Origin: an uncultured cyanobacterium
GTDB taxonomy: Bacteria > Cyanobacteriota > Cyanobacteriia > Cyanobacteriales > CAWCAG01
Length of the DNA: 64,000 nucleotides
NCBI GenBank assembly: GCA_963803805.1
Contig: CAWDOD010000001.1
Span: 95,975-159,974, forward strand
Reading direction: 5' to 3'
Position 1 is the first letter of the stretch; each line of letters begins with the position of its first letter. Under the pieces are notes generated by a model. It had not been told where the DNA came from. It saw nothing but the letters and a program-made list of their open reading frames with translations, and ran no database searches. The position numbers were made by a program, and so were the translations under genes. Shown here piece by piece: positions 8,951 through 47,237 of the stretch.

Positions 8951-9628
8951 ATGGTAAGAAGAAAAGCAGAAATAGAAGCAGAATTAGCAGCAAAAAACGA
9001 ACGGTTGCAGGAAGTGCTTGGTGAGCTAAAGGAGGCAAAGAATCAGCTTCAACCGACTAAACCTAGTAAGCTTGCCCAAACGAAGGTTCCGGGTTTACCT
9101 AACTTTACCCCTAAAACTTCAAAGGGTATGATTCCCCAGTTCAATGAAGGGGATTTCGTAATCAAAGACCCTTTAAACCCAAAGCTACCAACTGTATCCA
9201 TCGAGCAGCATGAGGAGGCTGTTGAGAATTATAAGGGGGCAAATCGCGCTCTTGATCTTTATGGAATGGGTTTTGACACCACAGGCAAAATGTTTAGTGT
9301 TGTTGGCAAACGAGCTAAAGCTGTTGGTGCTGGTATTGATGCTGTAACCGAAACAGAAAAAACTAGGGGAGCTTTCCTTAACTATTTAGGGCAGTTGCAG
9401 TCTAACCAACAATCTGCGATCGCATTAAACGCAGCAACATATAAAACGGGGATAGACTCTCAATCAGCAGCATTCACCATAACTGGACTGGACTACTCTT
9501 TGCAGGAAGCTGAAGTGAAGAGTCAGCTTGCTTTAGGTAAGTTAGCAGAAACTAGCAACAAACTCAGATTACTCAAAGAATCTTTGGGTAACGATTTTAT
9601 TGAAGCCAAAGCAGAAGAAACCGTGTAA
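8951..9628 (+). CDS. Coiled-coil hypothetical protein
   Basis: AGGAG ribosome-binding site; 225 aa. Confidence 0.65.
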   Translation: MVRRKAEIEAELAAKNERLQEVLGELKEAKNQLQPTKPSKLAQTKVPGLPNFTPKTSKGMIPQFNEGDFVIKDPLNPKLPTVSIEQHEEAVENYKGANRALDLYGMGFDTTGKMFSVVGKRAKAVGAGIDAVTETEKTRGAFLNYLGQLQSNQQSAIALNAATYKTGIDSQSAAFTITGLDYSLQEAEVKSQLALGKLAETSNKLRLLKESLGNDFIEAKAEETV

Positions 9629-9637
9629 AAGGAGTAA

Positions 9638-29170: not shown

Positions 29171-29608
29171 TTACTTTTCAATGTCGTCTACCCAGTTGCA
29201 ATTAGGACAGTTCCACTCATCCTTTGGTAAACAAATTCCACCAAAATCAAAACCACACTCAGGGCAAATTCCAGTGAAGAAGGGATGATTGTTTAAAATA
29301 TCTAACTGCTCTTCTCTGGTGTACTTGGGAGTGTGTAAGATTAACTCGCCATTGTAGTAACTAGCCCCTTGAGGTTCCCATAGTTCATCTGATTTTTCTA
29401 GCTCTGGGTTTGGTTTAAAGTCTGAGCAGCTATTTTCCTCAATGCCATAAGGATGTATGGCGCAAACGATGTGGGGGTTTCTAGAATAAAACAAGCAGCG
29501 ATCGCAATCTGAAATTTTGCCCATTTGAGTATTAAGGTAGATTTTAGAACAAATTCTTTCGGAATTAGTATTGACTAAAAAGGTACAAAAAATGGCTTTT
29601 GTTTCCAA
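29171..29608 (-). CDS. DUF6464-like Cys-rich protein
   Basis: CDRCLFYSRNPHIVCAIHPYG; CPEC...CPNC. Confidence 0.6.
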   Translation of the reverse strand: METKAIFCTFLVNTNSERICSKIYLNTQMGKISDCDRCLFYSRNPHIVCAIHPYGIEENSCSDFKPNPELEKSDELWEPQGASYYNGELILHTPKYTREEQLDILNNHPFFTGICPECGFDFGGICLPKDEWNCPNCNWVDDIEK

Positions 29609-30217
29609 ATATACTTGCTAATGGGAATGTTATCGAGGATTTCAGTGCCATCGACAACACGGAAAACTTTGCCTCTACCTTTTTTGAGAAATTCCTGGGG
29701 CAAGACAAATCTTTCTCGAAACAGGAATATAAGAATAAACAGCTTCCTGCCTTGTCTGAGGGCTGCTTTAGCTTGAATCAAACTACCGCTCGTATCGGAA
29801 GCCTCCACGATCACCGTCGCTTGACATAGTTTTATTGCGCTCTGGGAAAAATCCTCGATTACTTCTGTAATCTCGTTGAGAATAAAAGTAAAAAGGCACT
29901 TGGCTAACGAGAAGATGAGTTTGAGATATTTTCTGTTGCAACTGGCGATTTGAGCGAGGGTAGTACTCATTAAGGGGAGTTCCTATAACTCCTATAGTTC
30001 TACCCCCAGCTTCAAGAGCAGCTAGATGTGCAGCAGTATCTATACCTTCTGCCAAGCCGCTCATAACTGTAATGTTGTTATTAACAAGTAAACGTGCTAA
30101 CTTCTTAGCTCGTCTTAAGCCTTCAGGAGATGCTTTACGGGCCCCCACCACCGAAACAATCTTAGTGTGGAGTAGATCGAGAATTCCTTGATAGTTTAGC
30201 AAAGCTGATTCCTCCAC
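29575..30217 (-). pseudogene. dprA: DprA/SMF protein, frameshifted near 29825
   Basis: VVGAR, SGLAEGIDTAAH, FPERNKTMS in one frame; ATVIVEASDTSGSL in another. Confidence 0.8.
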
Positions 30218-30620: not shown

Positions 30621-31601
30621 ATGGTGGAACGTTTGTTGGGAGAAAACCAAGAGGGGAGTCTCAGGTTAAGGACACCCCTTCCTTTAGCTTGCCACCCAGC
30701 AGAAGTTTATTTAGATAGTTTGGCTCCTGGTTCGAGGACGACCATGAGGCAAGCTCTAAATGCGATCGCGTCCATATTAACCAACGGAGAATGTGATGCC
30801 CTCTCCTTAGATTGGTCGAAATTACGTTATGTCCATACAGCCACAGTTCGGTCTGTACTAGTAAAAAAGAAATTAGCCCCAGCAACCACTAATAAAATGT
30901 TGTGTGCCTTGCGTAGAGTGTTAGGGGAGGCGCAAAAGTTAGACTTAATCTCTAGTAGTGACTATACCAAAGCTATTAGTATTAGTAACGTTAAAGAAGA
31001 CTCCCGGTTGAGGGGACGTTTAATACAGCGTGAAGAAGTAGCCTTACTTTTGGAATTATTAGAAGAAGGGAGAAATAAAAAAGAACCAGGATACGCTCAA
31101 CCCATTGATATTAGGGATATGGCTTTAATTGCCATATTGAGGGGAGGAGGGCTACGGCGTAATGAAGTAGTCAGGTTGGAGTTGAAAGACTTTAACCCCA
31201 GGACAGGAGCAGTGGAAGTGCGCCAGGGTAAGGGGGGTAAAAGTAGAATTGTTTATTTGCCAGAGGTGGCGGTGGAGTTGGTGATTAAATGGTTAGGTAT
31301 TAGAGGGCGTAAGAGTGGGGCTTTGTTATGTCCAGTGGTTAAGGGAGGAAAAATAGTAATTCGCCACATTAGTGCGGATGCGGTGGGTAAGACTTTGCAA
31401 AGATTGGGGAAAAAGGCTGGGTTAGCTTCTTTTTCAGCCCATGATTTTCGGAGGACATTTTGTTCTGAACTGTTGGATTTGGGTGCAGATATAGTGACGG
31501 TGCAGAAGTTAGCAGGTCATGCTTCTCCTGCTACTACAGCGATTTATGACCGTCGGGGGGAAGAGGTGAAGCGTTCTGCTATTCGGAAAATGAAGTTTTA
31601 G
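30621..31601 (+). CDS. Tyrosine recombinase/integrase
   Basis: GLRRNE, KGGK, HDFRRT, LAGH and catalytic Y (AIYD). Confidence 0.93.
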   Translation: MVERLLGENQEGSLRLRTPLPLACHPAEVYLDSLAPGSRTTMRQALNAIASILTNGECDALSLDWSKLRYVHTATVRSVLVKKKLAPATTNKMLCALRRVLGEAQKLDLISSSDYTKAISISNVKEDSRLRGRLIQREEVALLLELLEEGRNKKEPGYAQPIDIRDMALIAILRGGGLRRNEVVRLELKDFNPRTGAVEVRQGKGGKSRIVYLPEVAVELVIKWLGIRGRKSGALLCPVVKGGKIVIRHISADAVGKTLQRLGKKAGLASFSAHDFRRTFCSELLDLGADIVTVQKLAGHASPATTAIYDRRGEEVKRSAIRKMKF

Positions 31602-31696
31602 AGGGTGGGTATCTGCTCGTTAAAATAGAGCCAAGGGTTTTTCCCACCTTACTAGTGGTTTGTCCAGATTGTAACTATCAAGTGTACGACCCTTAA

Positions 31697-31740
31697 CCTT
31701 TACCCCTTAACCGTCAATTGAAAATTGACAGAATACTAGC
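31697..31740. repeat. About 45-bp element with an inverted copy at 50018-50061
   Basis: Shared CCGTCAATTGAAAATTGACA-N3-TACTAGC preceded by CCCCTTA-type heptamers. Confidence 0.75.
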
Positions 31741-32491
31741 CATGTCTGTTGCCAAAGAATTAGCACCTAAGCAAAATAGCCCAGAAGTAGAGGAACAAAC
31801 CTCATCTGGGGAAACTTGGAGGGAACAGCGAGAAGATGTTATCTTTCCTCCTGGTGACTTGTACAGTGATGAACCCCCCTTGGAAACTGAACTGCATCTA
31901 CGGCAAATAATTATCTTGCTGCAAAGCCTCGAATGGTTATGGAAAGATAGAAACGATTTCTATAGTGCTGGTAATCTTACCATTTACTATAGTCCTAACC
32001 AGAAGAAGTCAGAAGACTTTCGCGGCCCAGACTTTTTCGTAGTTTTGGGAGCAGAAAGGAAAACCAGAAAAAGCTGGGTAGTGTGGGAAGAAAATGGTCA
32101 ATATCCCCATGTGATTGTGGAAATTCTTTCTTCTAGTACCGCGAATATAGATAAGGACTTCAAAAAACAACTTTATCAAAACACCTTCCGCACCCCAGAT
32201 TATTTCTGGTTTGACCCCTACAGCTTAGAATTGGCAGGCTTTCATTTAGTAGATGGAGAATATCAGCCTCTAGAAGCTGATAGCCAAGAGCGCCTGTGGA
32301 GTCAGCAGTTAGGTTTGTATTTGGGAATTGACAACGAGCAGTTACGTTTTTTCACCACGGAAGGGAAGTTAGTTCCTACCCCAGAAGAAACCGCAGAAGA
32401 GTTGGCCACTCAAGCAGAGCAATCGGCGGCTCAAGCAGAAAGATTTGCTGCTAAACTGCGGGAGTTGAATATCGATCCTGATGCCATTTAG
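31718..32491 (+). CDS. Uma2 family (DUF820) endonuclease
   Basis: SDEPPLETELH, GPDFFVV, VEILS, YFWFDP; ATG at 31742 is the likelier start. Confidence 0.9.
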   Translation: MKIDRILAMSVAKELAPKQNSPEVEEQTSSGETWREQREDVIFPPGDLYSDEPPLETELHLRQIIILLQSLEWLWKDRNDFYSAGNLTIYYSPNQKKSEDFRGPDFFVVLGAERKTRKSWVVWEENGQYPHVIVEILSSSTANIDKDFKKQLYQNTFRTPDYFWFDPYSLELAGFHLVDGEYQPLEADSQERLWSQQLGLYLGIDNEQLRFFTTEGKLVPTPEETAEELATQAEQSAAQAERFAAKLRELNIDPDAI

Positions 32492-32900
32492 ATTCACAGT
32501 TATTGGTGCTTCGAGGGGTGGGGTGGCAGCTAATCCAAAACTTTCCATGATTTCCCTAGTAGTTAAGTAGCCGTCATCTTCACCAGTAGGGGTAAGGGCG
32601 ATCGCAACCTGTACTAAAAGTTCTCCTCAAGCTCCTACCAACTCCAAAATCAAACCCTTAACCACATCTGGACACCAATCACTACCTAAAATTTCCAACA
32701 ATAAAGGAGAACTTTGGCTCTCAACCTTATAAATCGCCTTCACTAGGAAAAAAAGACGGGCTTCGCCTATTCGGTAGGGACGGTTGAATTAGATAATAGA
32801 CGATGGATAATGGTTTACAGGGATTGATGAGGCTCTAACGGCAGCGATACGTACCTTCTTTTTCACCATACCCCACACCCCACCCCCTAAACCCTGTCTC

Positions 32901-33212
32901 CTTTTGACCTAACTTTTTTTCTGAATAGCCCTTAAGGTGGAAACAAGGCAAAAATTAAGGTTTTGAAATTGTTAAATCCTTTACTATGACTGAATTATAG
33001 CGGTAATTTTGTGCCAAAAATCTAAGGGGGTCAGGGAATGGCTGAAATGCCTATTCTTTCGTTGACCCCCTTAGATTCATATCCCTGTAAGGGTTTTAGA
33101 GGTTGTAATTTGATTTTATTAGAAACTATTGTCAATTATTTAGGGGTAAATTTGACCCCCTTAGATTTGATGGTTTATAATCTTCTCATACCAAGGCTTT
33201 CATAAGCCGAGG
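32901..33212 (+). promoter_or_regulatory. CRISPR leader 1, homologous to 38414-38725
   Basis: Alignable over about 310 bp; last ~75 bp nearly identical. Confidence 0.8.
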
Positions 33213-33394
33213 GGTTCACCAATTACCTAAATTGGTCTTGTTGGAAACCCGCCTAAGCTAGGAGAAAACCCACCAAGGGTTATATCGGGTTCACCAATTA
33301 CCTAAATTGGTCTTGTTGGAAACATGAACTGGAGAGTAGTTGTTGTCTCAGTCATGATGGTTCACCAATTACCTAAATTGGTCTTGTTGGAAAC
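33213..33394 (+). CRISPR. CRISPR array 1: 3 repeats, 2 spacers
   Basis: (G)GTTCACCAATTACCTAAATTGGTCTTGTTGGAAAC; 35-nt core starts at 33214, 33289, 33360. Confidence 0.95.
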
Positions 33395-33416: not shown

Positions 33417-33444
33417 AAAGGTTAGAGCTTAAGCTCTAACCTTT
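33417..33444. terminator. Perfect 28-bp palindrome downstream of array 1
   Basis: AAAGGTTAGAGCTTAAGCTCTAACCTTT. Confidence 0.65.
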
Positions 33445-33498
33445 AAGTTTTGCTAACACAAGGGCAAAACAAAAAGCTACCAAAATTAGTAAACTTTA

Positions 33499-33534
33499 GT
33501 TTCCAACAATACCGATTAAAGCTAATCGGTGAAG
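33499..33534 (-). repeat. Single inverted CRISPR-repeat variant
   Basis: Minus strand CTTCACCGATTAGCTTTAATCGGTATTGTTGGAAAC; stem preserved by a compensatory change. Confidence 0.8.
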
Positions 33535-33673
33535 CTAGTAATACACCAGACTTGAATTAATCAAAAAAATGTTTTTTCAGTAATTCCTTAATCTAGTGCA
33601 GAACTTACACATAACTGTAGGGGAAATGAACCGAACAAAACAGGTCATTTTGACCTTGATTTTTTCTGTTTAG

Positions 33674-33994
33674 TTATTTACTAACTTTCTCTTTCTCCTG
33701 GCAAAGAATTTCTAAAAGTTCATCAGGAATCTCTTCAAAATGCTCAAGTAGGAAATCCATGAATGCTAAATTCCTCAAATCATGGGGTTGGGGACGACGG
33801 TAATAATGATTCCTTTTGAACCATCTTTGTACAGTAGAGTAGGAACGGGAACAGATTTGAGCCATTTGCTCATAAGTAACTGACCACTTGAGATAAAACC
33901 TTTGGGGAGATAAACCCAACTCGCAATTAGCATAAAGCCTAATTAAATCTAGCTCTCGCTCACCTAAAGAATCTGACATAATATTACTCCACAA
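33674..33994 (-). CDS. Small HTH protein
   Basis: VTYEQMAQICSRSYSTVQRWF. Confidence 0.7.
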   Translation of the reverse strand: MWSNIMSDSLGERELDLIRLYANCELGLSPQRFYLKWSVTYEQMAQICSRSYSTVQRWFKRNHYYRRPQPHDLRNLAFMDFLLEHFEEIPDELLEILCQEKEKVSK

Positions 33995-34301
33995 CTGCTT
34001 CTAAATCTTCTTCCCAAGCAAAATCAAACTGACACCAGGAATAGCTAAAGGAACTGCTATCTAAAACAATTAAATAACACCAACTCCAACTTTTAAGATG
34101 TCGAGAATAAGTGTAAAAAACTCCTGCAATTACTCCCCAATCAAAACAATCATCAAGGGGTAGCCAGCGTACCTTAACCCCATAAACAAACTTGGGTTTC
34201 TTAACTTTTGACCAGTCAATATCTGTCAGTGGTTGCAATTTTGCTAAAGGTAGTAACTGAACCACTGATTGGGTATTTTGTCTCAGCATATCCTCTCCCA
34301 T
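33984..34301 (-). CDS. Hypothetical protein (DUF1392/SH3-like), translationally coupled to cas2
   Basis: PKFVYGVKVRW...WGVIAG...WCYLIVL; start overlaps the cas2 stop. Confidence 0.5.
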   Translation of the reverse strand: MGEDMLRQNTQSVVQLLPLAKLQPLTDIDWSKVKKPKFVYGVKVRWLPLDDCFDWGVIAGVFYTYSRHLKSWSWCYLIVLDSSSFSYSWCQFDFAWEEDLEAVVE

Positions 34302-34579
34302 CAGGCGAAAAAAACTTCATCATCAATGGCATAATCTGGTTTAATTCCTAGTACAGTAACTTTATGGCGACAAGGTTGGGAAAGGGGATAAAATCTCAAC
34401 TGATCCTCCTTGGCATTTAATAACTTACTGAGCCTTGGTAATAGCTTCTTGTACTGGCGTGGATTCAAAACCAGTTCAAACACAGACTTTTGCACTCGCA
34501 AACCGTAAGCTTCCAATAATTTGGATACCCTAGTACGGCGACGGTCATCTACAATGTCATAGCAAACTAAGTAAAACAT
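34301..34579 (-). CDS. cas2: CRISPR-associated Cas2
   Basis: YLVCYDIVDDRRR...RVQKSVFE...DQLRFYPL. Confidence 0.95.
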   Translation of the reverse strand: MFYLVCYDIVDDRRRTRVSKLLEAYGLRVQKSVFELVLNPRQYKKLLPRLSKLLNAKEDQLRFYPLSQPCRHKVTVLGIKPDYAIDDEVFFA

Positions 34580-34653: not shown

Positions 34654-35649
34654 TTAACAATTAGGAAAATTAGTGTGGCATAACATGGGACGATAAAAAT
34701 CTCTGATGCCCACAATGCAAGCTAAATACTCCTTAACCTGTAACTCAATGCAACGGCGATAGGTAACTTTTCCTGCCCGTAAATGCTTCACAGGAGTATC
34801 TAATTTAGCTTCCCAAGCTTTAATGAATTTCCGCAAAGGTAGGGGATAAAGATGGATTTCTCCCTCTTCATCAGGCAAGGTAAAATCAGAGCAATTAATA
34901 ATGCGATCGCTAGTTAATTGAAGAACAAAAGAATCAACAAAAATTGCCCCTAACTCCAGCATTAAATCAGCAACTAAAGGTAAGGTATATTCCACCTCAT
35001 TATGAAAGTTGCTAATATTAGGGTCGAGTCCCACCTGCTCTAAGCAAGTCCTGATTTTGTCCCCTAAAAAGATGTAGCCTAGGTTTAATAAACAAGCTAA
35101 TTGCTGGCTAACTTCATCTTGGTGATAGGTCTTTAACCAGTCTGGAGGCAGCAAACTATCTAAAGCTGTAAAGTAGATTTCATCGGCTTTTTCTTCTAAC
35201 TTAGTAAAGGTATGAAAACCTTTAACCAGAGGCAAATTGTCCTCAATTTTCTTGAGTATGCAAACAGCTTTCTCTACAGATGCTTGATGATTATTTAATT
35301 GCTTAAGTAAATTAGAGCGATTATGACAACTAGCCCTTAAAATACTTTCGGTGGTTTCCCAAGTAAACTCATGGTTTTGGCAATATCGTAACTGCTTTTG
35401 CTGATGCTTGATAGTAGCTTGCCCAGGACTATGATAGGGCTTTTCTTGTTCGAGGAAGAGCAGAGGAATATTGAGAGAGCGTACCAATTTGAGGGCTTCT
35501 TGAGAAATATTAGTATAGCCAAAGAGAACGATTTCTTCGACTTTAGCAATAGCTACTTGGTAAGAAAAGCTGCGATTAGGGAAGACATGAAAGTTGGTTT
35601 TGTCTGCCTTTAATAAAGCTCCTGGTTCAGGAATATAGAGAGTAGTCAT
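34654..35649 (-). CDS. cas1: Degenerate Cas1 paralog
   Basis: MTTLYIPEPG, IVLFG, LLNLGY, NFH, LVADLMLE; aligns with the Cas1 domain of RT-Cas1. Confidence 0.85.
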   Translation of the reverse strand: MTTLYIPEPGALLKADKTNFHVFPNRSFSYQVAIAKVEEIVLFGYTNISQEALKLVRSLNIPLLFLEQEKPYHSPGQATIKHQQKQLRYCQNHEFTWETTESILRASCHNRSNLLKQLNNHQASVEKAVCILKKIEDNLPLVKGFHTFTKLEEKADEIYFTALDSLLPPDWLKTYHQDEVSQQLACLLNLGYIFLGDKIRTCLEQVGLDPNISNFHNEVEYTLPLVADLMLELGAIFVDSFVLQLTSDRIINCSDFTLPDEEGEIHLYPLPLRKFIKAWEAKLDTPVKHLRAGKVTYRRCIELQVKEYLACIVGIRDFYRPMLCHTNFPNC

Positions 35650-36332: not shown

Positions 36333-38309
36333 ATGCAAATTGAACCAATAGAACTGATAACAGCTTGGCAACAAGTGCGTAATCGTAGTCCGGCGGCGGG
36401 GGTAGATGGTATTACCTTAGATTTGTTTGCGGGGGTAGCCAAAGAACAACTAAGAAACTTAAAACGAGAACTGGAACGGGAATACTACCAAGCCAGTCCT
36501 GCTAAAGGTTTTTACTTAAAGAAAAAGAGCGGAGGTCAACGTTTAATTGGTATTCCCACAGTACGCGATCGCGTGGTACAAAGATTGACCCTCCAATCAA
36601 TTTACCCCACCTTAGAAACGGAATTTCCCACCCATAGTTATGGCTACCGTCCAGGGCATTCTGTACAAATGGCCATAGAACATTTCTCGGAATATTACCG
36701 AGAAAGACCCACTTGGGTAATCAAAGCAGATATTGCTCAGTTCTTCGATAGCCTTATTTGGGCCATTTTGCTCGAAAGTCTCGAAGATATTGCTATAGAG
36801 CAGTTTTGGGAACAGCTTATTGCCGGGCAATTGCAGGCGGGAATAAGGTTGCAAGGGCAGTGGTTTAACCCTGGTAAAGGAGTATTACAAGGAGGCATTT
36901 TATCAGGTGCTTTAGCAAACCTTTACCTCAGTGAGTTTGACCGTTACTGTGCTGATTTTGGTATCCAAATTGTGCGCTATGGGGATGATTTTGTCATTGC
37001 CACTGGAGGTTTATTAGAAGCTACAAGGGTTTTAGCCCAAGTGAGTCAGTGGTTGGAGGATATTTACCTAACCCTACAACCAGAGAAAACCCAGATTTTT
37101 GCCCCTAGTGAGGAGTTTGTTTTCCTGGGCTATAGGTTTCAGGGGGGAGAAATTATTCCCCCTCCCTCTAAAAGTCGTAGCACCTCAGCTAAACCCAAAC
37201 AAAGACCAGCACCAGAATCCAGACCCCCCAAAGCCTGTAGCATCCTCAAACCTTCTTCCTACCACCATCAAGTCAACCAAGATTTTTACTGGAGTGATTC
37301 TATGACTACTCTTTATGTGACTGAACAGGGAGCCTATCTCAAGGTACGACACCAACAGTTTCAGGTTTTCCACCACCAGGAATTACGCATTACTGTTCCC
37401 GTGAATCGGGTGAGCCATATTGTTCTCTTTGGCTGTTGTAATCTTTCCCACGGGGCAGTGCAACTGGCCCTGAAACGACGTATTCCGGTGATGTATCTTT
37501 CCCACCAAGGACGTTACTTCGGCCGTTTACAAACCGATGGCATGGCAGAAATTGATTACCTCCTATTGCAAATGCAGCGTCATCAAGAACCAGCTTTTCA
37601 ACGTCGGCAGGCAGAAGTTATAGTTATGGCTAAACTGCACAATTCCCGTAAGCTGTTACTACGGATGAATCGGGGCAAAAAGATTACTAAGGTGAATAAA
37701 GCCGTTAATAAAATTGCCCAGATTATTGATAAGCTACCCTCCGCTAAATCTGTTGAGAGTTTGTTAGGTTATGAAGGGCAAAGCGCCCATTTATACTACC
37801 AAGCTTTAGGAATGCTTTTTAATGGTAAGTTTGCCTTCGAGAAGCGTACCCGCCGTCCTCCCACCGACCCCATTAATAGTCTGCTCAGTTTGGGTTATAC
37901 TCTGTTGCACCAAAATGTTTTTTCTTTGGTACAGGCAGTAGGTTTACATACCCATTTTGGTAATCTCCATACCCCCCGTCGTAATCATCCGGCTTTAGTT
38001 TCTGATTTAATCGAGGAGTTTCGCGCCCCAGTGGTGGATTCTTTCATTGCTTACTTGGTTAATTCCAAGATTTTCAAGCAAGGGGATTTTACTCCAGCAG
38101 ACGGAAGGGGTGGGGTTTATCTTCATCCTGGTTCTTTGCGGAAGTATCTTAAGCATTGGCAAGAGAAGTTACAGACTCAGGTTACTCACCCCCATACAGG
38201 TTATAAGGTGAGTTATTACCGTTGTTTGGAGTTACAGGTTTGGGAGTATATTGCTTGTTTGAAGGGAGAGCAGGAGGTTTATCGGCCGATGATGTGGAAG
38301 ATCAAATAG
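36333..38309 (+). CDS. cas1: Reverse transcriptase-Cas1 fusion
   Basis: RT motifs AGVDG, GIPTVRDR, ADIAQFFD, QGG, RYGDD; Cas1 motifs GYEG, RRPPTDPIN, GNLH, SDLIEEFR. Confidence 0.95.
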   Translation: MQIEPIELITAWQQVRNRSPAAGVDGITLDLFAGVAKEQLRNLKRELEREYYQASPAKGFYLKKKSGGQRLIGIPTVRDRVVQRLTLQSIYPTLETEFPTHSYGYRPGHSVQMAIEHFSEYYRERPTWVIKADIAQFFDSLIWAILLESLEDIAIEQFWEQLIAGQLQAGIRLQGQWFNPGKGVLQGGILSGALANLYLSEFDRYCADFGIQIVRYGDDFVIATGGLLEATRVLAQVSQWLEDIYLTLQPEKTQIFAPSEEFVFLGYRFQGGEIIPPPSKSRSTSAKPKQRPAPESRPPKACSILKPSSYHHQVNQDFYWSDSMTTLYVTEQGAYLKVRHQQFQVFHHQELRITVPVNRVSHIVLFGCCNLSHGAVQLALKRRIPVMYLSHQGRYFGRLQTDGMAEIDYLLLQMQRHQEPAFQRRQAEVIVMAKLHNSRKLLLRMNRGKKITKVNKAVNKIAQIIDKLPSAKSVESLLGYEGQSAHLYYQALGMLFNGKFAFEKRTRRPPTDPINSLLSLGYTLLHQNVFSLVQAVGLHTHFGNLHTPRRNHPALVSDLIEEFRAPVVDSFIAYLVNSKIFKQGDFTPADGRGGVYLHPGSLRKYLKHWQEKLQTQVTHPHTGYKVSYYRCLELQVWEYIACLKGEQEVYRPMMWKIK

Positions 38310-38725: not shown

Positions 38726-39170
38726 GGTTCACCAATTACCTAAATTGGTCTTGTTGGAAACACCTAAACCCCCCATTACTTTGTCAACATTGTTCAAGGT
38801 TCACCAATTACCTAAATTGGTCTTGTTGGAAACCAATATCATCTGACTTTTCATCCATAAACTTACTTGCTGGTTCACCAATTACCTAAATTGGTCTTGT
38901 TGGAAACAGTAAGCATGGAGTGGCGTCAATGCCTACGCAAACCCGGTTCACCAATTACCTAAATTGGTCTTGTTGGAAACCTTCACTAGGGGTTTTTCCA
39001 GTGCCTTCAAATGGGTTCACCAATTACCTAAATTGGTCTTGTTGGAAACCGGTGTAGTCGAAAAGAGAGAGACTAATCATCATAAGAAGTTCACCAATTA
39101 CCTAAATTGGTCTTGTTGGAAACCACTTTAAAAACAAGGCGGTCAAAAAGCCCAAAAAGGGTTCACCAAT
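38726..39170 (+). CRISPR. CRISPR array 2: 6 full repeats, 6 spacers, 7th repeat cut by ISAs1
   Basis: Cores at 38727, 38799, 38873, 38946, 39015, 39089; partial GTTCACCAAT at 39161. Confidence 0.96.
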
Positions 39171-40422
39171 CAGGGCGAACGCATCTAAATAGAGTGAAAA
39201 GCGCGAAAGTAAGAAACAAAGAAGTAGATTAGTACAACAACGCCAGAAATCTGAGAATCTACTGCAATGAAACTAAAACCGAAAATCACACTAATAGACC
39301 ACTTCACAGAATTAACAGACCCAAGGGTAGAGCGAACAAAAGAACATAAGCTAATAGATATAGTGGTGATAGGGATTTGTGCAGTAATCTGTGGAGCAGA
39401 CACCTGGGTGGGAATAGAAACCTATGGCAAAGCAAAATACCAATGGTTAAAGCAGTTCTTGGAGCTAGCAAATGGAATACCATCTCATGATACTTTTTCA
39501 AGGGTGTTTGCTCGTATAGACCCAAAGGAATTTCAAGGCTGTTTTCTGAGTTGGGTAAAATCAATCAGCAAGTTGATTCCATCGGAAGTTATCAGCATAG
39601 ATGGTAAAACTCTGAGACATTCTGAGGACAAAGGAAGTAACAAAAGAGCAATTCATTTGGTAAGTGCCTGGGCAAGTTCTCAAAGATTAGTACTGGGACA
39701 ACAGAAAGTAGAGGAAAAGTCCAATGAAATTACCGCAATACCTGAGTTACTAAAGGTCTTGGAAATATCAGGATGTATAGTCACAATTGATGCGATGGGA
39801 ACTCAGAAAAAAATTGCCCAACTAATCATTTCTCAAGAAGCTGACTATTGCCTGGCCCTAAAAGGCAATCAAGGAAACATCCATGAAGATGTCAAGCAAT
39901 TATTTACTCAAGCCCAAGCTCAACAATGGCAAAATATCGACCATAACTTCTTTGAGACGGTAGAGAAAGGTCATGGGCGTGTTGAGATTCGCCGTTATTG
40001 GACAATGGCCAATGTGGAATTTTTAATTGATAGTGAGCAATGGGTTGGACTTAAGAGTATTGGTATGGTTGAATCAAAGCGGACTTTTGCAGGAGAAACT
40101 ACCTCGGAAATTCGCTACTATCTCAATAGTTTTCCTTCTGATGCCCAAATGTTTGCCCATGCTGTTCGTAGTCACTGGGGAGTGGAAAATTGCCTTCATT
40201 GGGTCTTAGATGTTGCCTTTAGGGAGGATGATTGTCCTATTCGTAAAGATAATGCTCCTGAAAATTTTGCTTTACTACGCCACATTGCTCTCAATCTTCT
40301 TTCCCAGGAGAAAACTGCCTCTATGGGAGTTCAGAACAAGCGTCTTCAAGCTGCTTGGGATGATGACTATCTTGCCAGAGTTTTGAGAATTTGACCTTTT
40401 ATTTTTAGATGCGTTTGCCCTG
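39171..40422 (+). mobile_element. ISAs1-family insertion sequence
   Basis: IRs CAGGGCGAACGCATCTAAA and TTTAGATGCGTTTGCCCTG (1 mismatch). Confidence 0.92.
39267..40394 (+). CDS. ISAs1 transposase
   Basis: DPR, IPSHDTF, IDGKTLR, KSNEI, TIDAMG, HWGVEN. Confidence 0.95.
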   Translation: MKLKPKITLIDHFTELTDPRVERTKEHKLIDIVVIGICAVICGADTWVGIETYGKAKYQWLKQFLELANGIPSHDTFSRVFARIDPKEFQGCFLSWVKSISKLIPSEVISIDGKTLRHSEDKGSNKRAIHLVSAWASSQRLVLGQQKVEEKSNEITAIPELLKVLEISGCIVTIDAMGTQKKIAQLIISQEADYCLALKGNQGNIHEDVKQLFTQAQAQQWQNIDHNFFETVEKGHGRVEIRRYWTMANVEFLIDSEQWVGLKSIGMVESKRTFAGETTSEIRYYLNSFPSDAQMFAHAVRSHWGVENCLHWVLDVAFREDDCPIRKDNAPENFALLRHIALNLLSQEKTASMGVQNKRLQAAWDDDYLARVLRI

Positions 40423-41527: not shown

Positions 41528-41887
41528 CTAGTCATTATTAGGAAAAGTGCATTTAACCTCAATAGCAACATTACTTTCTGCCGAACCTTCAGTGATGTAA
41601 GGAATACCAGCTTTACCGCCAATCTTCAAACCAAAAGAAATTTTAACTTCCTCAACATTTGCAGCACTAAAATTTCTAAAGGCACTAATCACATAAGTTG
41701 CGTAACCTCGAATCATCCTGGCAGCTTTTTTCATCTCAACAGTTCTACTGTTTCCTCCCCGGCCTGGACGACCATCACCCTCATCATCTTTAGGAAAATC
41801 TACTGATTTAGTTTCAATAAAAATTTCGTACTCTTCACCCTTATCGTCAGTGTAGGTAAGCTTTTGAATTTGGGAAGGTTCAGGCAT
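41528..41887 (-). CDS. CU044_2847/Trypco-like peptidase co-occurring protein
   Basis: VEEVKISFGLKIGGKAGIPYITEGSAESNVAIEV; divergent from the caspase gene. Confidence 0.75.
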   Translation of the reverse strand: MPEPSQIQKLTYTDDKGEEYEIFIETKSVDFPKDDEGDGRPGRGGNSRTVEMKKAARMIRGYATYVISAFRNFSAANVEEVKISFGLKIGGKAGIPYITEGSAESNVAIEVKCTFPNND

Positions 41888-41966
41888 AATGAAAACTCTC
41901 CTGACAAGAATAATGACTGTTTGCTAAGATTCTACAATCTATTGTTACAAAAGCTATTGCTCCCAG

Positions 41967-43529
41967 ATGGCTAAACGCTATGCTTTAGTAGTTGCGATTT
42001 CAAAGTATGAACACTTACGTCCTCTGGAGAATGTGATCAGAGATGGAAAAGCTATTGCCCAGAAATTAGACGATCATGGTTTTGGAGTAACAAAATATCC
42101 TCCAAAATGGATTGAAAAAGAATATCGCGAAGAACTTAAGTCATCTTTGGTATCTACTGAAGATTTATTACGCGAAATAGAGGAGTTTCTTTTTGATACA
42201 GCCCAAAACAGTGAAGCTCTAATCTACTTAGCTGGTCATGGTTTAAGAGTAAAAGGTTGCTCTCAGAGAATCCCTCCCAAAGCCTACTTTGCTGTTTCTG
42301 ATAGTCGCAGCGATGGTAGAAATGCCATCCCTTTTACAGACCTCAATACCCTTTTTGCTCAAGCTCGTAGTGAAGCTCATTTAAGCAGCTTAGTAGTTTT
42401 GCTAGATTGCTGTCATGCAGGTATGGCTTTTGAGGGAACCGTTGAAAGAGAAATATTCCAATCTAGTTTTACAGCCTTTCAGAACCAACCTAGCTACGGA
42501 ATTTTGGCATCTTGCCGTGGTCATCAAGAGTCTTATGAATTGGGGGAACATGGCTTATTTACCAGCAAAGTACTTGAAGGGCTGAAGCCAGGGAATGCTG
42601 ATGAGAATGGCGTAATTTCTTTTAATCGCCTTGCCGATTACGTTAACCTGAAGCTGCAAAATATGGGTCAAGAATCGGTTGATTTAGCTTTTAAGGGTTC
42701 GGCAATTCAATTGGTAAGTTACTCAAAGGAATTAATCTCAGACATAACAGGAACAGCTCAAAATAGTTTCATCCAAGCTCTACAGGAACTAAATTATGCA
42801 GGTGAAGATAAACTATTTACAGATTTTCTTGAGGTAGAATCACCATCCTTGCCAGTAGGTGCGTTTTGGATACGTGCTGAAGAGGGTGGTGGTCAGCGCT
42901 GGTTAATAAACCGCCTCTGGCAAAAGAAAGTCCCTTTCTACCCTCAAGCTATTAAATATCCCTTCTTCATCAATAAAAGGTGGACAATCAACACAATCTG
43001 GGAAAAAGTAGGAGCTACTTTAGCCGTAGGAACTGAACCAGAAGAGATTGTCGAAGAACTGTACAACTTTTGGGTCAAACCTAATACGGTAGCTTTAGCC
43101 TTATACGGAGTAGAACGTTTGACGAAGGCTGATTTAGAAGAGCTATTCATCTCCTTTTGGCGACCCTTAACCCAAAAAGCTGCTCAGCAAAGTAATTCAG
43201 ACCTACCTTTGCTACTATTTTTAATTGACACTGGTATTAAAGATAACTGTGATTGCTGTTTAGAGCATCTCCAAGAATATGACTGCGATCGCCCTTGGCT
43301 ACCCGTTGAATTCCCTTTAAAGCCTTTTAGGAGAAAAAGCTTAGTTAACTGGGCCAACGCTCACCACCAAATAATTCAACCTTTGTTGAGAAACTGCTCA
43401 TCAATGCAAGAATTTAATCAGCAGCTCGAAAGTTGTAACCGTCGCGAGGATCTATGTCCAGAAGACGTGCTAGAAAAAATTTGTCAACTTTGTGGCCAAG
43501 AGCATTTTGAAATAACTTTCAACATTTGA
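41967..43529 (+). CDS. Caspase-like (C14) peptidase fused to an inactive-STAND-like domain
   Basis: YALVVAISKY; catalytic dyad LAGHG and LDCCHAG. Confidence 0.85.
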   Translation: MAKRYALVVAISKYEHLRPLENVIRDGKAIAQKLDDHGFGVTKYPPKWIEKEYREELKSSLVSTEDLLREIEEFLFDTAQNSEALIYLAGHGLRVKGCSQRIPPKAYFAVSDSRSDGRNAIPFTDLNTLFAQARSEAHLSSLVVLLDCCHAGMAFEGTVEREIFQSSFTAFQNQPSYGILASCRGHQESYELGEHGLFTSKVLEGLKPGNADENGVISFNRLADYVNLKLQNMGQESVDLAFKGSAIQLVSYSKELISDITGTAQNSFIQALQELNYAGEDKLFTDFLEVESPSLPVGAFWIRAEEGGGQRWLINRLWQKKVPFYPQAIKYPFFINKRWTINTIWEKVGATLAVGTEPEEIVEELYNFWVKPNTVALALYGVERLTKADLEELFISFWRPLTQKAAQQSNSDLPLLLFLIDTGIKDNCDCCLEHLQEYDCDRPWLPVEFPLKPFRRKSLVNWANAHHQIIQPLLRNCSSMQEFNQQLESCNRREDLCPEDVLEKICQLCGQEHFEITFNI

Positions 43530-43545
43530 GGATTAACTTAGCATC

Positions 43546-44529
43546 ATGACAGGGAAACTAAACTATTCTGGAGAGCCAAAATATCAACCCCAAAAACCTG
43601 GCTTAGATAGCCAGGGAAGGCGTTTATTTCCCTATCTGCCAGAGCCAAATCTAATCAAAGCTGTCAATCTAGCCCTAGCCTTGGAGCGTCCCCTGCTCAT
43701 ACAAGGTGAACCAGGTTGCGGTAAAACCCTCATTGCTAGAGCTATTGCCTACGAATTTGGTCAAAAGTATCTTCAAGGTAAAGAGGAATGGCCCTATTTC
43801 CGTTGGAATATCACCTCCCGCACTGAAGCTCAACAAGGGCGCTACACCTTCGATGCTTTGGGTAAGCTGCGAGATGCTCAAATGGTAGGTATAGAATACC
43901 TTACCCCACAACAAAGAGGAGCTTTAAACCAAAGGTTAGCAGACCCTGAAGGTTACATACTTTGGGGGCCATTAGGTCAAGCCTTTCGTGAACAAAACCA
44001 TCGTCCCATACTACTAATAGATGAAATAGATAAAGCTGATGTAGACTTTCCCAACGACTTACTCTCAGAACTAGAAGAACCTCGCTTTAGGGTTACTGAA
44101 ACTCAAAAGCCAGTTGTGGCTAGACAGCAGCCCATTGTCATCATCACCAGTAACTCAGAAAGAGAACTTCCCGAAGCCTTTTTAAGACGCTGCTTATTTT
44201 ATTGGTTGGAGTTTCCTGAAGAAACAAGGTTGCGAAAAATAGTCTCTTTACACTTTCCTGAGTATGAACTAGTAAAGCTATTTGACCAAGCCATTTCTCA
44301 ATTTTTCAAAGTTCGTAATAAACTTGCGACTCGAAGAAGTGGCAATAAGCAGGCTAGCACCAGTGAGCTACTTGATTGGCTAAGGATTTTGACTAACTTA
44401 CCTGCTGAGGAGGCTTTGATAGCAGTAGAAAATGTTTTTACTGATGCTGCTCAGCTTGGTATCTTGGTTAAATCTAAAGCAGATTTAGAAGCAATCAAAA
44501 GAGATATTGGTGAGGTAAATAATCAGTAG
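43546..44529 (+). CDS. MoxR family AAA+ ATPase
   Basis: GEPGCGKT, LLIDEIDKAD, TSNSERELPEAFLRRC. Confidence 0.93.
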   Translation: MTGKLNYSGEPKYQPQKPGLDSQGRRLFPYLPEPNLIKAVNLALALERPLLIQGEPGCGKTLIARAIAYEFGQKYLQGKEEWPYFRWNITSRTEAQQGRYTFDALGKLRDAQMVGIEYLTPQQRGALNQRLADPEGYILWGPLGQAFREQNHRPILLIDEIDKADVDFPNDLLSELEEPRFRVTETQKPVVARQQPIVIITSNSERELPEAFLRRCLFYWLEFPEETRLRKIVSLHFPEYELVKLFDQAISQFFKVRNKLATRRSGNKQASTSELLDWLRILTNLPAEEALIAVENVFTDAAQLGILVKSKADLEAIKRDIGEVNNQ

Positions 44530-44532
44530 AAA

Positions 44533-45588
44533 ATGGTGAGTCTACCTACCTTACCCTTGTTTGAATTGTTCCAAGAGTTGCGTGTACCTCTTTCGCTGCA
44601 ACCAGATCAGTATGTCTGGCTTTTGGAAGGACTGAAGCAGGGTTTTGGTTGTGAAAGTGTAGATGACTTGAAAGAAGTTTGTCGTCTGCTCTGGCTGAAA
44701 TCAAGAGATTCCCAAGCTGAAAAAGCATTTGAAACTACTTTCAATCGCTACATTAAAAAACATCAACAAACACTTCAATCAGTAACAACATCCTCATCAG
44801 CGAGAAAAGAAACTGTAAACCGCTCAACAAGCCAACAAAATACATATCCAACTTATCAACCAGCTACTAATCAAACCACAGCGCCTCAAAGCACTAGCTC
44901 CAACCTGCGTTTAACTAGTGCTTATCAAACAACTCAAGAAATGGAAGTCACTCAATCTCAGCAAGGCTATATTCTCAAAGTCAGTGATTTTCCTTTCTTA
45001 TTACGCCAAACACGCCATGCTTGGTTACGTCTGCGTTATCCTCAAAAAAGAGGAGAGACTTCTCAGATTGACATACCAGCAACAATAAGAAAAATTGGTT
45101 GTTATGGTATTTGCCTAGAGCCAGAAACAAAACCACAACTGATTAATCAAATTGAGTTGGTCTTTTTAGAAGATAGAGAAGGTTCAATGATTCCTTTTCG
45201 TCCTATAATTGATGGTTTATTTACCACAGTAGAAAAGAACCGTTTTCAGAGAGTTTATCGCTACTTTTTCCGTAACTGTCCTGGTGATTTCGTCTATTTA
45301 CGACCCAAAGGAACAGATACTATCCTTTTAGAAGACTTACCCTTAAGACCGCAAAGAACTATTTTAGTAATTATTAGTGATGCTGGTGCTGCTAGGGGAG
45401 GTCATAGTTTTCGTAGACTGGAGATGACAGAAAAATTTTTGAGTGCAGTACAGCCAAGAATAAAATCTTTACTGTGGATTAATCCCTTACCTTACAAAAG
45501 GTGGACAGGAACAACCGCAGCAGATATAGCTGGTTTGATGGGAGTCAAAATGTTTGAAATGTCCGCTATCAGTGAATATTTATCATGA
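44533..45588 (+). CDS. vWA/CoxE-like protein
   Basis: DREGSM, ISDAGAARG, WINPLP. Confidence 0.85.
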   Translation: MVSLPTLPLFELFQELRVPLSLQPDQYVWLLEGLKQGFGCESVDDLKEVCRLLWLKSRDSQAEKAFETTFNRYIKKHQQTLQSVTTSSSARKETVNRSTSQQNTYPTYQPATNQTTAPQSTSSNLRLTSAYQTTQEMEVTQSQQGYILKVSDFPFLLRQTRHAWLRLRYPQKRGETSQIDIPATIRKIGCYGICLEPETKPQLINQIELVFLEDREGSMIPFRPIIDGLFTTVEKNRFQRVYRYFFRNCPGDFVYLRPKGTDTILLEDLPLRPQRTILVIISDAGAARGGHSFRRLEMTEKFLSAVQPRIKSLLWINPLPYKRWTGTTAADIAGLMGVKMFEMSAISEYLS

Positions 45589-47237
45589 ATCTAACCAAGG
45601 AAAGGGAGAAAGCAAAAGATGAGGTAATACGCTTTACCCAAAAGTGGGGAAGAGATTACCTTAATTTGGCTTGTCATGCTGCCTTTCCTTTAGCCATAAC
45701 CCCAGAGTTGGCTTATTGTCTGCGTGAGAATTTCCTCCCTGAGTGTCCTTGGTTTGCTGTTGCCGACTTGATTTTATCTTCCCTTTGTGACCCAGTAGGA
45801 GATGAATTATATGAGATGGATGCCATAGTACGAGATGTGCTGCTACGCCGTCTAGCTAAGGATGCGCGATTCGGGGCAGCTCGTCTTCAGAGTATGGGGG
45901 AGTTTATGGGAGCTTACATTGGGGCAAAGTTACCAACAAATTCCCTAGCAGGACGTGATTTTGGTGTCGGTTTAGAATGGGTAGCTTTGGCATATATTCA
46001 TAGTGAAGATGCTAATCTATTGCGGGAAAAAATTCAGCAAGAATTGCAAAGAGGACGAGGAGAAGTAAGAGAGCGCTTAGCTAGTTTTCTAGATGCTCAA
46101 GAAGATTTATTAGTTGCTGCTGGTTTAGAACCGTTGCTTATTTCTACTCAAGTTCAATTAGATATTGGTGTAATCTTAGAAACTTTTGAAGCGGAAATTG
46201 TCAGCATTATTTCTGAAGAAGAATCTCAAACTGAGGAAGAGTATAGCACTTGGGAATTTGAAACAGTTTTTGTTAATGAGCGAGGAGAAATTATTGAAAC
46301 TCAGCAGTGCCAAGGTTACTACTTTGAGGAGTTTTTAGCAGAGGATGTACCTCCTTTGGTAATGGTAGCTATACCTGAAGGAGAATTTATTATGGGTTCT
46401 CCTCCGGAAGAGAAAAAAAGATACGATGATGAAGGGCCCCAACATCCTGTTAAAGTTAAACCCTTTTTTATGGCTCAAACTCCCATTACTCAAGGACAAT
46501 GGCGTATTGTAGCAGCAATGGAACAGGTAGGAAAAGAGTTAGACCCTAATCCTTCCAACTTTAAAGATGATGACCATCCTGTGGAGGAAGTGAGTTGGTA
46601 TGATGCCATAGAATTTTGCGCTCGGTTGTCGCGTCATACAGGTAAAGATTATCGTCTGCCTAGTGAAGCTGAGTGGGAATATGCTTGTCGGGCAGTTACC
46701 AGTGAATCATCATGGCTTACGGAAGAAGGTGAACCATTTCTTACTGAACAGGGTGAACAATTGCTAACTGAGGGGGAGCCTGATATTAGAAAAAGTTCTT
46801 ATTCTCCTTTTCATTTTGGTGAGACTCTTACAACTGATTTAGCTAACTATAATGGTTCAGTGTATAAGAATGAGCCTGAAGGAAAAAGTCGAGGTGGAAC
46901 TAGCCCTGTTAAGAGTTTTCCACCTAATGCCTTTGGTTTATACGATATGCACGGGTTAGTTTGGGAGTGGTGTTTAGATCCTTGGCATGGGAGCTATGAA
47001 AACGCACCAGCAGATAGTAGGGTGTGGGATGAAGAAAATAATGATAATCATTATCAAAAAATAGCGGATAATATTAAAGTTTTGTTAAGTGATGAGCGTA
47101 GTCGTATTCGGCGCGGCGGTTCCTGGTTCAGCTCTCCGAGGGTCTGTCGCTCTGCTTCTCGCGTCGTCGACTATCCCGATTTTCGTAGCTTCAGCTACGG
47201 TTTTCGTGTTGTCTGCGGAGCTGCGAGGACTCTTTAG
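45585..47237 (+). CDS. DGR target 1: helical N-terminal domain + FGE-sulfatase (C-type lectin fold) domain
   Basis: RLPSEAEWEYACRA, NAFGLYDMHG, RGGSW, GFRVV; VR at the 3' end. Confidence 0.92.
   Translation: MNLTKEREKAKDEVIRFTQKWGRDYLNLACHAAFPLAITPELAYCLRENFLPECPWFAVADLILSSLCDPVGDELYEMDAIVRDVLLRRLAKDARFGAARLQSMGEFMGAYIGAKLPTNSLAGRDFGVGLEWVALAYIHSEDANLLREKIQQELQRGRGEVRERLASFLDAQEDLLVAAGLEPLLISTQVQLDIGVILETFEAEIVSIISEEESQTEEEYSTWEFETVFVNERGEIIETQQCQGYYFEEFLAEDVPPLVMVAIPEGEFIMGSPPEEKKRYDDEGPQHPVKVKPFFMAQTPITQGQWRIVAAMEQVGKELDPNPSNFKDDDHPVEEVSWYDAIEFCARLSRHTGKDYRLPSEAEWEYACRAVTSESSWLTEEGEPFLTEQGEQLLTEGEPDIRKSSYSPFHFGETLTTDLANYNGSVYKNEPEGKSRGGTSPVKSFPPNAFGLYDMHGLVWEWCLDPWHGSYENAPADSRVWDEENNDNHYQKIADNIKVLLSDERSRIRRGGSWFSSPRVCRSASRVVDYPDFRSFSYGFRVVCGAARTL
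47114..47237 (+). repeat. DGR variable repeat VR1
   Basis: 11 differences from TR, all at TR adenines, plus one 3' T/G difference. Confidence 0.95.

Follow-up and report, generated by a model that had tools for sequence, protein, structure and literature searches.

A solitary variant of a CRISPR repeat lies at the end of an operon for spacer acquisition, or adaptation, in a 64,000-nt stretch of DNA from an uncultured cyanobacterium (contig CAWDOD010000001.1 of assembly GCA_963803805.1, positions 95,975 to 159,974). This whole stretch, hereafter called the window, also carries two CRISPR arrays, array 1 and array 2. The operon includes cas1 and cas2, and its last gene, here termed orfB, codes for a small protein. 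We consider the lone repeat to be a genuine and selectively maintained element that acts as RNA, and to represent a class of such elements located at the 3' ends of adaptation operons. On the basis of comparative sequence analysis, we assign this interpretation a probability of roughly 55%. Members of the class share a layout in which a single repeat is followed by about 23-57 nt and then by an intrinsic terminator, and the conservation of this arrangement indicates that it is probably a working RNA element and not debris. The representative in the window comprises the following parts.

33499-33534, minus strand: solitary variant CRISPR repeat of 36 nt, defined by its sequence, by comparison with the arrays, by its hairpin and by covariation.
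33523-33530 (5' arm), 33519-33522 (loop) and 33511-33518 (3' arm), minus strand: hairpin of the lone repeat, with a predicted stability of -8.8 kcal/mol.
33499-33506, minus strand: presumed 8-nt tag, TTGGAAAC, whose length is inferred from the usual Cas6 product.
33445-33498, minus strand: the 54-nt stretch after the repeat, or "pseudo-spacer," with two small predicted hairpins at 33479-33500 and 33447-33470.
33417-33444, both strands: 28-nt palindrome that resembles an intrinsic terminator on both strands, as judged by terminator scoring.

Read on the minus strand, positions 33499-33534 have the sequence CTTCACCGATTAGCTTTAATCGGTATTGTTGGAAAC, and the arrays of the window contain nine identical copies of the repeat GGTTCACCAATTACCTAAATTGGTCTTGTTGGAAAC, with three in array 1 and six in array 2. 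An earlier note on this DNA, made by a model from the sequence alone, had described the element as an orphan repeat variant that retains an intact 3' handle and carries a compensatory change in its stem. These descriptions hold. BLAST searches reveal one copy of the variant in the 5.3-Mb genome and find the canonical repeat only at the nine array positions. The 11-nt 3' end, TTGTTGGAAAC, has 10 exact matches in the window, which correspond to the nine array repeats and the lone repeat, and 12 matches are present when up to one mismatch is permitted (2.1 +/- 1.35 are expected from shuffles). Over the last 14 nt, the lone repeat and the array repeat of the window are identical at 13 positions.

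The stem of the lone repeat, ACCGATTA/TAATCGGT, consists of 8 bp closed by the loop GCTT. Its differences from the array stem, ACCAATT/AATTGGT, occur in pairs, and the sole further change in the last 13 nt of the repeat is a substitution of A for C (GGTCTTG to GGTATTG). The 8-bp stem ends 12 nt before the end of the repeat, such that the distance from the hairpin to the 3' end is the same as in the array repeats. In other genomes that belong to this order, full arrays have ACCGATT/AATCGG as their normal stem. The stem difference is therefore compensatory without a fixed direction: either form could be derived, and the arrays of the window itself may be the derived form.

The repeat begins 139 nt past orfB, and array 1 converges on it from beyond the palindrome, in agreement with the position given in the earlier note. 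The palindrome ends the solitary unit on the minus strand, where a stem ending in TTT is followed by the tail TTTATC, and it ends array 1 on the plus strand. When folded from a few nucleotides before the repeat through the terminator, the whole unit reaches -43.2 kcal/mol, compared with -26 +/- 3.4 for shuffles (z = -5.1), and none of 200 shuffles gave a value as low.

Related loci were gathered first by using orfB as an anchor and then by using an alignment of Cas2, because an alignment of Cas1 was too divergent to search with. A search of genome contigs with a single Cas1 protein gave no match. The resulting class has 21 members: the window, its congener G001, the genomes G005 and G008, loci L060 and L061 (two of the 45 anchored on orfB) and, among the 22 cyanobacterial loci anchored on Cas2 in which orfB is present, a further 15. 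The loci are related to each other, and hence the counts, shuffle tests and permutation tests given below overstate independence. In each, a single repeat-like hairpin that bears the local handle lies on the operon strand, downstream of a gene series of the form cas1-cas2-...-orfB, in some cases followed by a further gene, orfC. The cas1 gene of these loci is of the kind that lacks a reverse transcriptase (RT), and an RT-cas1 gene resides nearby in many of them. Named genera among the 21 include Nostoc, Richelia, Halotia, Cronbergia, Iningainema and Scytonema, as well as Rivularia, Microcoleus, Phormidium, Oscillatoria, Argonema and Floridaenema, and three repeat families are represented. In most loci from the Nostocales the repeat begins no more than about 20 nt past the orfC stop codon, which leaves no room for a leader. 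Of the seven remaining Cas2-anchored loci with orfB, four have a decayed version without the handle and three have none that could be seen; all four decayed cases are accompanied by arrays of a different repeat family.

The association was also examined by comparing each locus with the halves of its own array repeat, with up to four substitutions allowed per 22 nt and the arrays themselves excluded. A lone 3' half was found at the expected place in 12 loci, and none was found in 12 array-bearing loci in which orfB does not follow cas2. One of the 12 positive loci, L079, has two more relics of repeat halves on the opposite strand, about 170-230 nt further downstream, where a convergent array has decayed. 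Thus, among the loci examined, the unit occurs only where orfB follows cas2. Conversely, 43 of the 45 orfB-anchored loci have no cas1-cas2 pair within 3 kb, and a match to the unit was found in 0 of these 43. Together, the scan controls and the cas-less orfB loci indicate that the lone repeat goes with the cas context and not with orfB as such.

The closest comparison is provided by G001, which belongs to the same genus as the source of the window. The syntenic region is 89% identical, with one difference in the repeat and four in the 57 nt that come after it. The three differences that fall within the first predicted hairpin all preserve pairing.

Evidence for constraint at the RNA level comes from the stem. 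When the 21 repeats are aligned, both sides change in five of the eight base pairs. Double changes occupy 16 cells, a number that none of 500 shuffles reached (4.3 +/- 2.0 on average), and the covariation score is 0.329 compared with at most 0.112 when the partners are slid. Four or five rows of this alignment are out of register due to other loop lengths, which counts against structure.

The handle behaves differently. Across 19 loci, the last 14 nt of the lone repeat match the array of the same locus at a mean of 13.3 positions, compared with 10.6 for the arrays of other loci, and none of 10,000 permutations reached this value. (L060, whose consensus was mis-oriented, and L083, which has no array, were left out.) In the stem and loop (16 nt), agreement with the locus's own array comes to only 10.1 positions. 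Sequence identity between lone repeats is likewise high: pairs of loci whose cas2 third-codon positions agree at only 46-56 of 90 sites (51-62%, which is near saturation) retain 31-34 identical positions of 36 (86-94%) in the repeat. In two distant pairs, the sequence beyond the terminator is essentially unalignable (2/60 and 10/60). Moreover, the lone hairpin is predicted to be more stable than the array hairpin in 13 of 19 loci. This is the pattern that should be seen for a repeat read by an RNA-binding enzyme specific for both structure and sequence, such as the machinery that processes CRISPR RNAs (crRNAs). Because the stems have diverged and only 14 nt are shared, the lone repeat would also carry a lower risk of recombination with the flanking array repeats.

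In the mechanism we propose, transcription of the unit would either continue from the operon as read-through or begin at a weak start a short way upstream. Cas6, the endoribonuclease that matures the crRNAs of the arrays, usually leaves an 8-nt tag on its product. Here it would bind the hairpin and cut 8 nt before the end of the repeat, near 33506/33507. Its products would be an adaptation mRNA ending in a protein-bound hairpin and an RNA of about 96 nt that carries the tag and extends as far as the terminator. The earlier note had predicted an RNA of about 60-80 nt, but an RNA that starts at the predicted cut (33506) and includes the whole terminator would measure about 96 nt, and a length of about 62 nt would result only if the RNA ended before the palindrome. 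The note had also offered processing of the cas mRNA as an alternative to the release of a guide, and we regard this as at least as likely. Because conservation is much stronger in the repeat than in the stretch that follows, and because no target of that stretch was found, we judge a processing site that couples the 3' end of the adaptation mRNA to Cas6 activity to be somewhat likelier as the selected feature than a guide supplied by the released RNA.

Several observations, in addition to the relatedness of the loci, weigh against the interpretation of the lone repeat as a maintained RNA element or against parts of the mechanism. Pfam models detect a single Cas6 in the genome, as part of a type I-D locus on a different contig (contig 10), and the RAMP genes of type III, at C1:28-30 kb and at C2:432-434 kb, adjoin arrays of a different repeat family. 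As a consequence, no Cas6 can be assigned to the repeat of the window. A terminator-like hairpin directly 3' of orfB may stop read-through, and no sigma-70-like promoter was found between this hairpin and the lone repeat. The lone hairpin is predicted to be less stable than that of the array in five of 19 loci, and in one locus (L078) the simple stem has been lost. In G001 (L015, C6:40000-59999, about 9300-11600), cas1 gives matches only in two separate pieces, to residues 1-134 and 228-331, and the unit is nevertheless intact, a state that may only reflect recent divergence. Finally, conservation of the handle would be needed for the loading of an effector and not obviously for a mere cleavage site, which favors the view that the released RNA is a guide.

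That view, in which the tag and about 30-37 nt of the following sequence would be loaded into a type III effector and aimed at an RNA of the cell itself or of a common invader, is the strongest rival, and we consider it unlikely. Not only the 8-nt tag but all of the last 14 nt are kept like those of the local array, as effector loading requires. In most loci the single-stranded stretch before the terminator is about 30-36 nt long, which is the size of a spacer, and a start motif resembling A(T/C)CTGC(G/A)TTT is common to many units from the Nostocales. In some pairs of loci the stretch is also better conserved than synonymous sites. For example, L060 and L076 agree at 25 of 30 positions, compared with 54 of 90 cas2 third positions, and L079 and L080 agree at 27 of 30. 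Between other close relatives, however, it has largely been replaced: L066 and L067 retain 17 of 30 positions even though their cas2 third positions agree at 75 of 90, and L069 and L082 retain just six of 30 in the stretch when their repeats agree at 34 of 36.

Efforts to find a target for such a guide were unsuccessful. In the window's own genome, the best matches of the downstream stretch are 17 nt long and reveal no target, and in five other genomes that carry the unit the stretch matches only the element itself. Two queries of 50,697 phage records returned matches at the level of chance, and the orfB loci that lack cas genes held nothing meaningful either. For the 21 loci, the best complementarity lies near the range of shuffled controls. 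Only L014, L083 and L085 surpass the shuffle maximum, with matches of 12-13 nt that lie within about 170 nt of the unit. Rfam produced sub-threshold chance matches only. A search of sequencing runs listed nine matching runs, all of them DNA metagenomes with small word shares, and no RNA run was among them. The earlier note had proposed looking for partial targets with the reverse complement of 33445-33498, and nothing meaningful emerged from this. In addition, the stretch in the window is predicted to be folded into hairpins, which does not suit a guide. The stretch therefore behaves unlike a regulatory guide and appears to be at most loosely constrained. Given its uneven conservation and the lack of a target in these searches, the selected core would be the repeat together with the presence of a terminator.

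The guide proposal in the earlier note drew on the RNAs known as CreA and CreR. Like CreR, CreA and crlRNA, the present unit has a lone or degenerate repeat beside cas genes, retains processing features, has a spacer-like stretch and is conserved in position among relatives. Those RNAs are defined by partial complementarity to cas or toxin promoters, and the known regulatory crRNA-like RNAs are described in paper abstracts as acting through DNA-binding effectors of types I, II or V. Here, in contrast, neither a partial nor a full target of the downstream stretch was found, and so the analogy fails its defining test. The setting is also distinct, because the unit belongs to an adaptation island with RT-Cas1, has no DNA-binding effector encoded alongside it, has one repeat and is closed by a terminator instead of a second repeat. 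It would work like a mini-CRISPR unit and is attached to an adaptation module, but no target of the kind that defines the regulatory family was found for it.

It is improbable, in our estimation, that the lone repeat functions as DNA, either by offering the neighboring Cas1-Cas2 a site for docking or integration or by serving as a seed for rebuilding an array. The unit does lie directly beside adaptation genes in every case, paired changes would also preserve palindromic half-sites, and in L061 and L096 a full array that has a leader of its own lies about 300 nt downstream of the unit, in the same orientation. Nevertheless, there has been no expansion at the position of the unit in any of the 21 loci, each of which has one repeat. 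No leader-like sequence is present upstream, and in most loci from the Nostocales the repeat abuts the stop codon. A protein that reads half-sites should not tolerate many different stems, and a role in DNA leaves both the terminator at a spacer-like distance and the intact RNA tag unexplained.

We attach an equally low probability to the idea that the repeat is a nonfunctional leftover, in which the last repeat of an older array or array variant was stranded by deletion or rearrangement and is slowly decaying. Such a remnant could predate the present arrays, since ACCGATT/AATCGG is canonical in full arrays of the same order, and the region has been rearranged, as indicated by an integrase, an insertion sequence (IS) and a possible second relic at 32660-32701. 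The four decayed loci and the three without a unit are also compatible with gradual loss. Terminal array repeats followed by terminators can look similar (L067 and L076), in that both are a variant repeat plus a terminator. Unlike these, however, the solitary unit has no array or leader on its strand and starts right after a protein-coding gene, and its handle is intact, whereas the handle of terminal repeats usually decays (the terminal repeat of L076 ends in AATAGAAAC). A survey of type III mini-arrays, in the passages available, reports unconserved positions, no enriched clades and no targets, and judges these elements to be probably degraded repeats (Shmakov et al., bioRxiv 10.1101/2023.03.03.530964). 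Both those elements and ours are standalone repeat-like sequences that flank type III-related cas operons, but the present class is conserved in position and structure, unlike the elements of the survey as described there.

The earlier note had named an unconserved remnant of an older array as the outcome that would overturn its proposal, and the comparative evidence speaks against this outcome. Across many genera and three repeat families, the unit retains its place, strand, single copy, hairpin, handle and terminator. The repeat is 86-94% identical where cas2 third-codon positions have fallen to 51-62%, its stem covaries, and a neutral relic should not track the handle of the local array.

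Three further candidates were rejected. The unit is not an anti-repeat of the kind found in trans-activating crRNA (tracrRNA), because its sense on the operon strand is that of the repeat itself, and it would be an anti-repeat only if plus-strand transcription passed the terminator. It is not a homing guide of a CRISPR-associated transposon (CAST), since the locus has no Tn7-like genes and the unit has no genomic match in the six genomes searched. It does resemble the delocalized crRNA units of type V-K and I-F3 CASTs in being a separate repeat-spacer unit outside the main array, cyanobacterial and with a fixed spacer, but delocalized CAST crRNAs guide homing to a conserved chromosomal site. 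Finally, Racrs, which the earlier note had also invoked, share with the unit the form of a solitary repeat that mimics a host array repeat. In the passages available they are encoded by invaders (phages and plasmids), whereas the present unit is tied to cas1-cas2 in every case, and the analogy does not fit a chromosomal cas operon. Nor is it a Racr of an orfB-orfC mobile element, because the cas-less orfB loci match no unit.

The genes and arrays around the unit are as follows.

33642-33656, minus strand: short hairpin AGGTCAAAATGACCT followed by GTTTTG, with a T-rich tail, directly after the orfB stop; a conserved motif located between orfB and orfC in other genera.
33674-33994, minus strand: orfB, the last operon gene, encoding a small helix-turn-helix (HTH) protein with a weak match to HTH_23.
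33984-34301, minus strand: orfA, encoding a 105-aa protein of no known Pfam or NCBIfam family, which accompanies orfB in several other loci.
34301-34579, minus strand: cas2, by Pfam and NCBIfam.
34654-35649, minus strand: cas1 without a reverse transcriptase domain, by Pfam and NCBIfam.
36333-38309, plus strand: RT-cas1 fusion gene, divergent from cas1 and followed by a leader and array 2.
33213-33394, plus strand: array 1, with three repeats and two spacers, convergent with the solitary unit.
38726-39123, plus strand: array 2, with six identical repeats, interrupted by an IS (transposase open reading frame (ORF) at 39267-40394).

Array 1 has a promoter-like site, near consensus, at 33152-33181, and its leader is homologous to that of array 2. 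These features establish the plus strand as the transcribed strand of the arrays and the minus strand as the repeat-sense strand of the lone repeat.

The earlier note had called the gene cluster a cas1-cas2 operon. Although cas1 and cas2 are present, the last two ORFs, orfA and orfB, do not belong to any cas gene family by Pfam and NCBIfam. An identity of orfB with Csx18 could not be established from family searches, the names of homologs or plasmid matches. The protein has no Pfam or NCBIfam family that would connect it to Csx18, and its homologs are named "helix-turn-helix domain-containing." The orfB family occurs in 21 cyanobacterial plasmid records (tblastn, PLSDB hits H16-H36), and no Synechocystis plasmid is among these 21 matches. 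The pair of orfB and orfC mostly occurs without cas genes. In two annotated loci of this kind, which look like mobile elements, the neighbors include a family-A DNA polymerase (PolA) and a tyrosine integrase (L049) and a PIN-domain gene (L023). The corresponding genes of the adaptation operon seem to be recruits from a mobile-element family.

The palindromic motif right after orfB has the form AGGTCA-N3-TGACCT followed by GTTTTG in the window and TGTCAATATCA-N3-TGACCTGTCTTTG in the Nostocales. It is also found in L013, L015, L017 and most of L021-L065, and could be an attenuator or an operator for the HTH protein. In G001, about 1.1 kb interrupts the small ORF that separates cas1 from RT-cas1.

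What may be a second, decayed relic of a repeat lies at 32660-32701, upstream of the leader of array 1. On the plus strand, a stretch that resembles the 5' half of a repeat abuts 12 nt that equal the reverse complement of TATTGTTGGAAA in the lone repeat, and on the minus strand the bases after the relic resemble part of the downstream stretch of the lone unit. Synteny with the congener stops near position 33301 of the window, which precludes a comparison of the relic with that genome. The interval 30621-32491, upstream of array 1, encodes a tyrosine integrase and a Uma2-family nuclease, and on the far side of array 2 a truncated repeat at about 39160-39170 is immediately followed by a DDE transposase (39267-40394). 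The region in which the CRISPR island is situated has been rearranged and looks mobile.

Other features of the window are more distant from the unit. Two overlapping minus-strand ORFs, at 29575-29970 and 29783-30217, match successive parts of DprA and look like a frameshifted or broken dprA, and a third overlapping ORF beside them, at 29171-29608, has no family match. A cluster at 41528-47237, by the CRISPR island, codes for Trypco1, caspase-iSTAND, an AAA ATPase, a VWA protein and an FGE-sulfatase-domain protein, and resembles conflict or defense loci. Finally, 52741-52991 is a tandem array of 39-nt units (6.4 copies, 91% identity) whose period is divisible by three.

In the genome as a whole (contigs C1:354-41824, C2:78380-438550, C10:312000-332000 and 518883), three repeat families are distributed over about a dozen scattered arrays. 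The window locus contains only adaptation genes and RT-cas1, and a type I-D effector is encoded elsewhere. No array is adjacent to the type I-D effector locus with Cas6. At C4:373556-373578 on the minus strand, 23 nt match the 3' two-thirds of the repeat at 21 positions (BLAST E of about 0.1) with no stem upstream, and this match could be due to chance or be a relic.

The production of crRNA-like RNAs from standalone repeats is established for phage-borne Racrs as well as for systems of types I, II and V. Passages from papers on cyanobacterial systems describe an isolated cas1-cas2-csx18 cassette and small proteins associated with adaptation, and mention no lone repeat. Our literature searches yielded no description of the present class.

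Standalone repeats are known to regulate cas genes, to guard cas genes with the aid of toxins or to act as anti-CRISPRs, and the worked-out cases involve the DNA-binding effectors of types I, II and V. The natural compensatory mutations of the present class would define what the processing enzyme needs, with the stem being required as structure and the last 14 nt as sequence. To our knowledge, little is known of how spacer acquisition is controlled, especially in systems linked to reverse transcriptases, and a conserved repeat at the end of an adaptation operon suggests a link between crRNA processing and the acquisition of spacers. We tentatively propose that RT-Cas1-type islands of filamentous cyanobacteria may carry a dedicated, vertically conserved one-repeat unit. 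Through Cas6, such a unit might tie the expression or stability of the acquisition operon to the state of crRNA processing and interference, or it might supply a fixed, non-acquired crRNA to type III effectors. In either role it would be without a described precedent, both as a functional standalone repeat of a type III-linked system and as one attached to an adaptation module instead of to effector genes.
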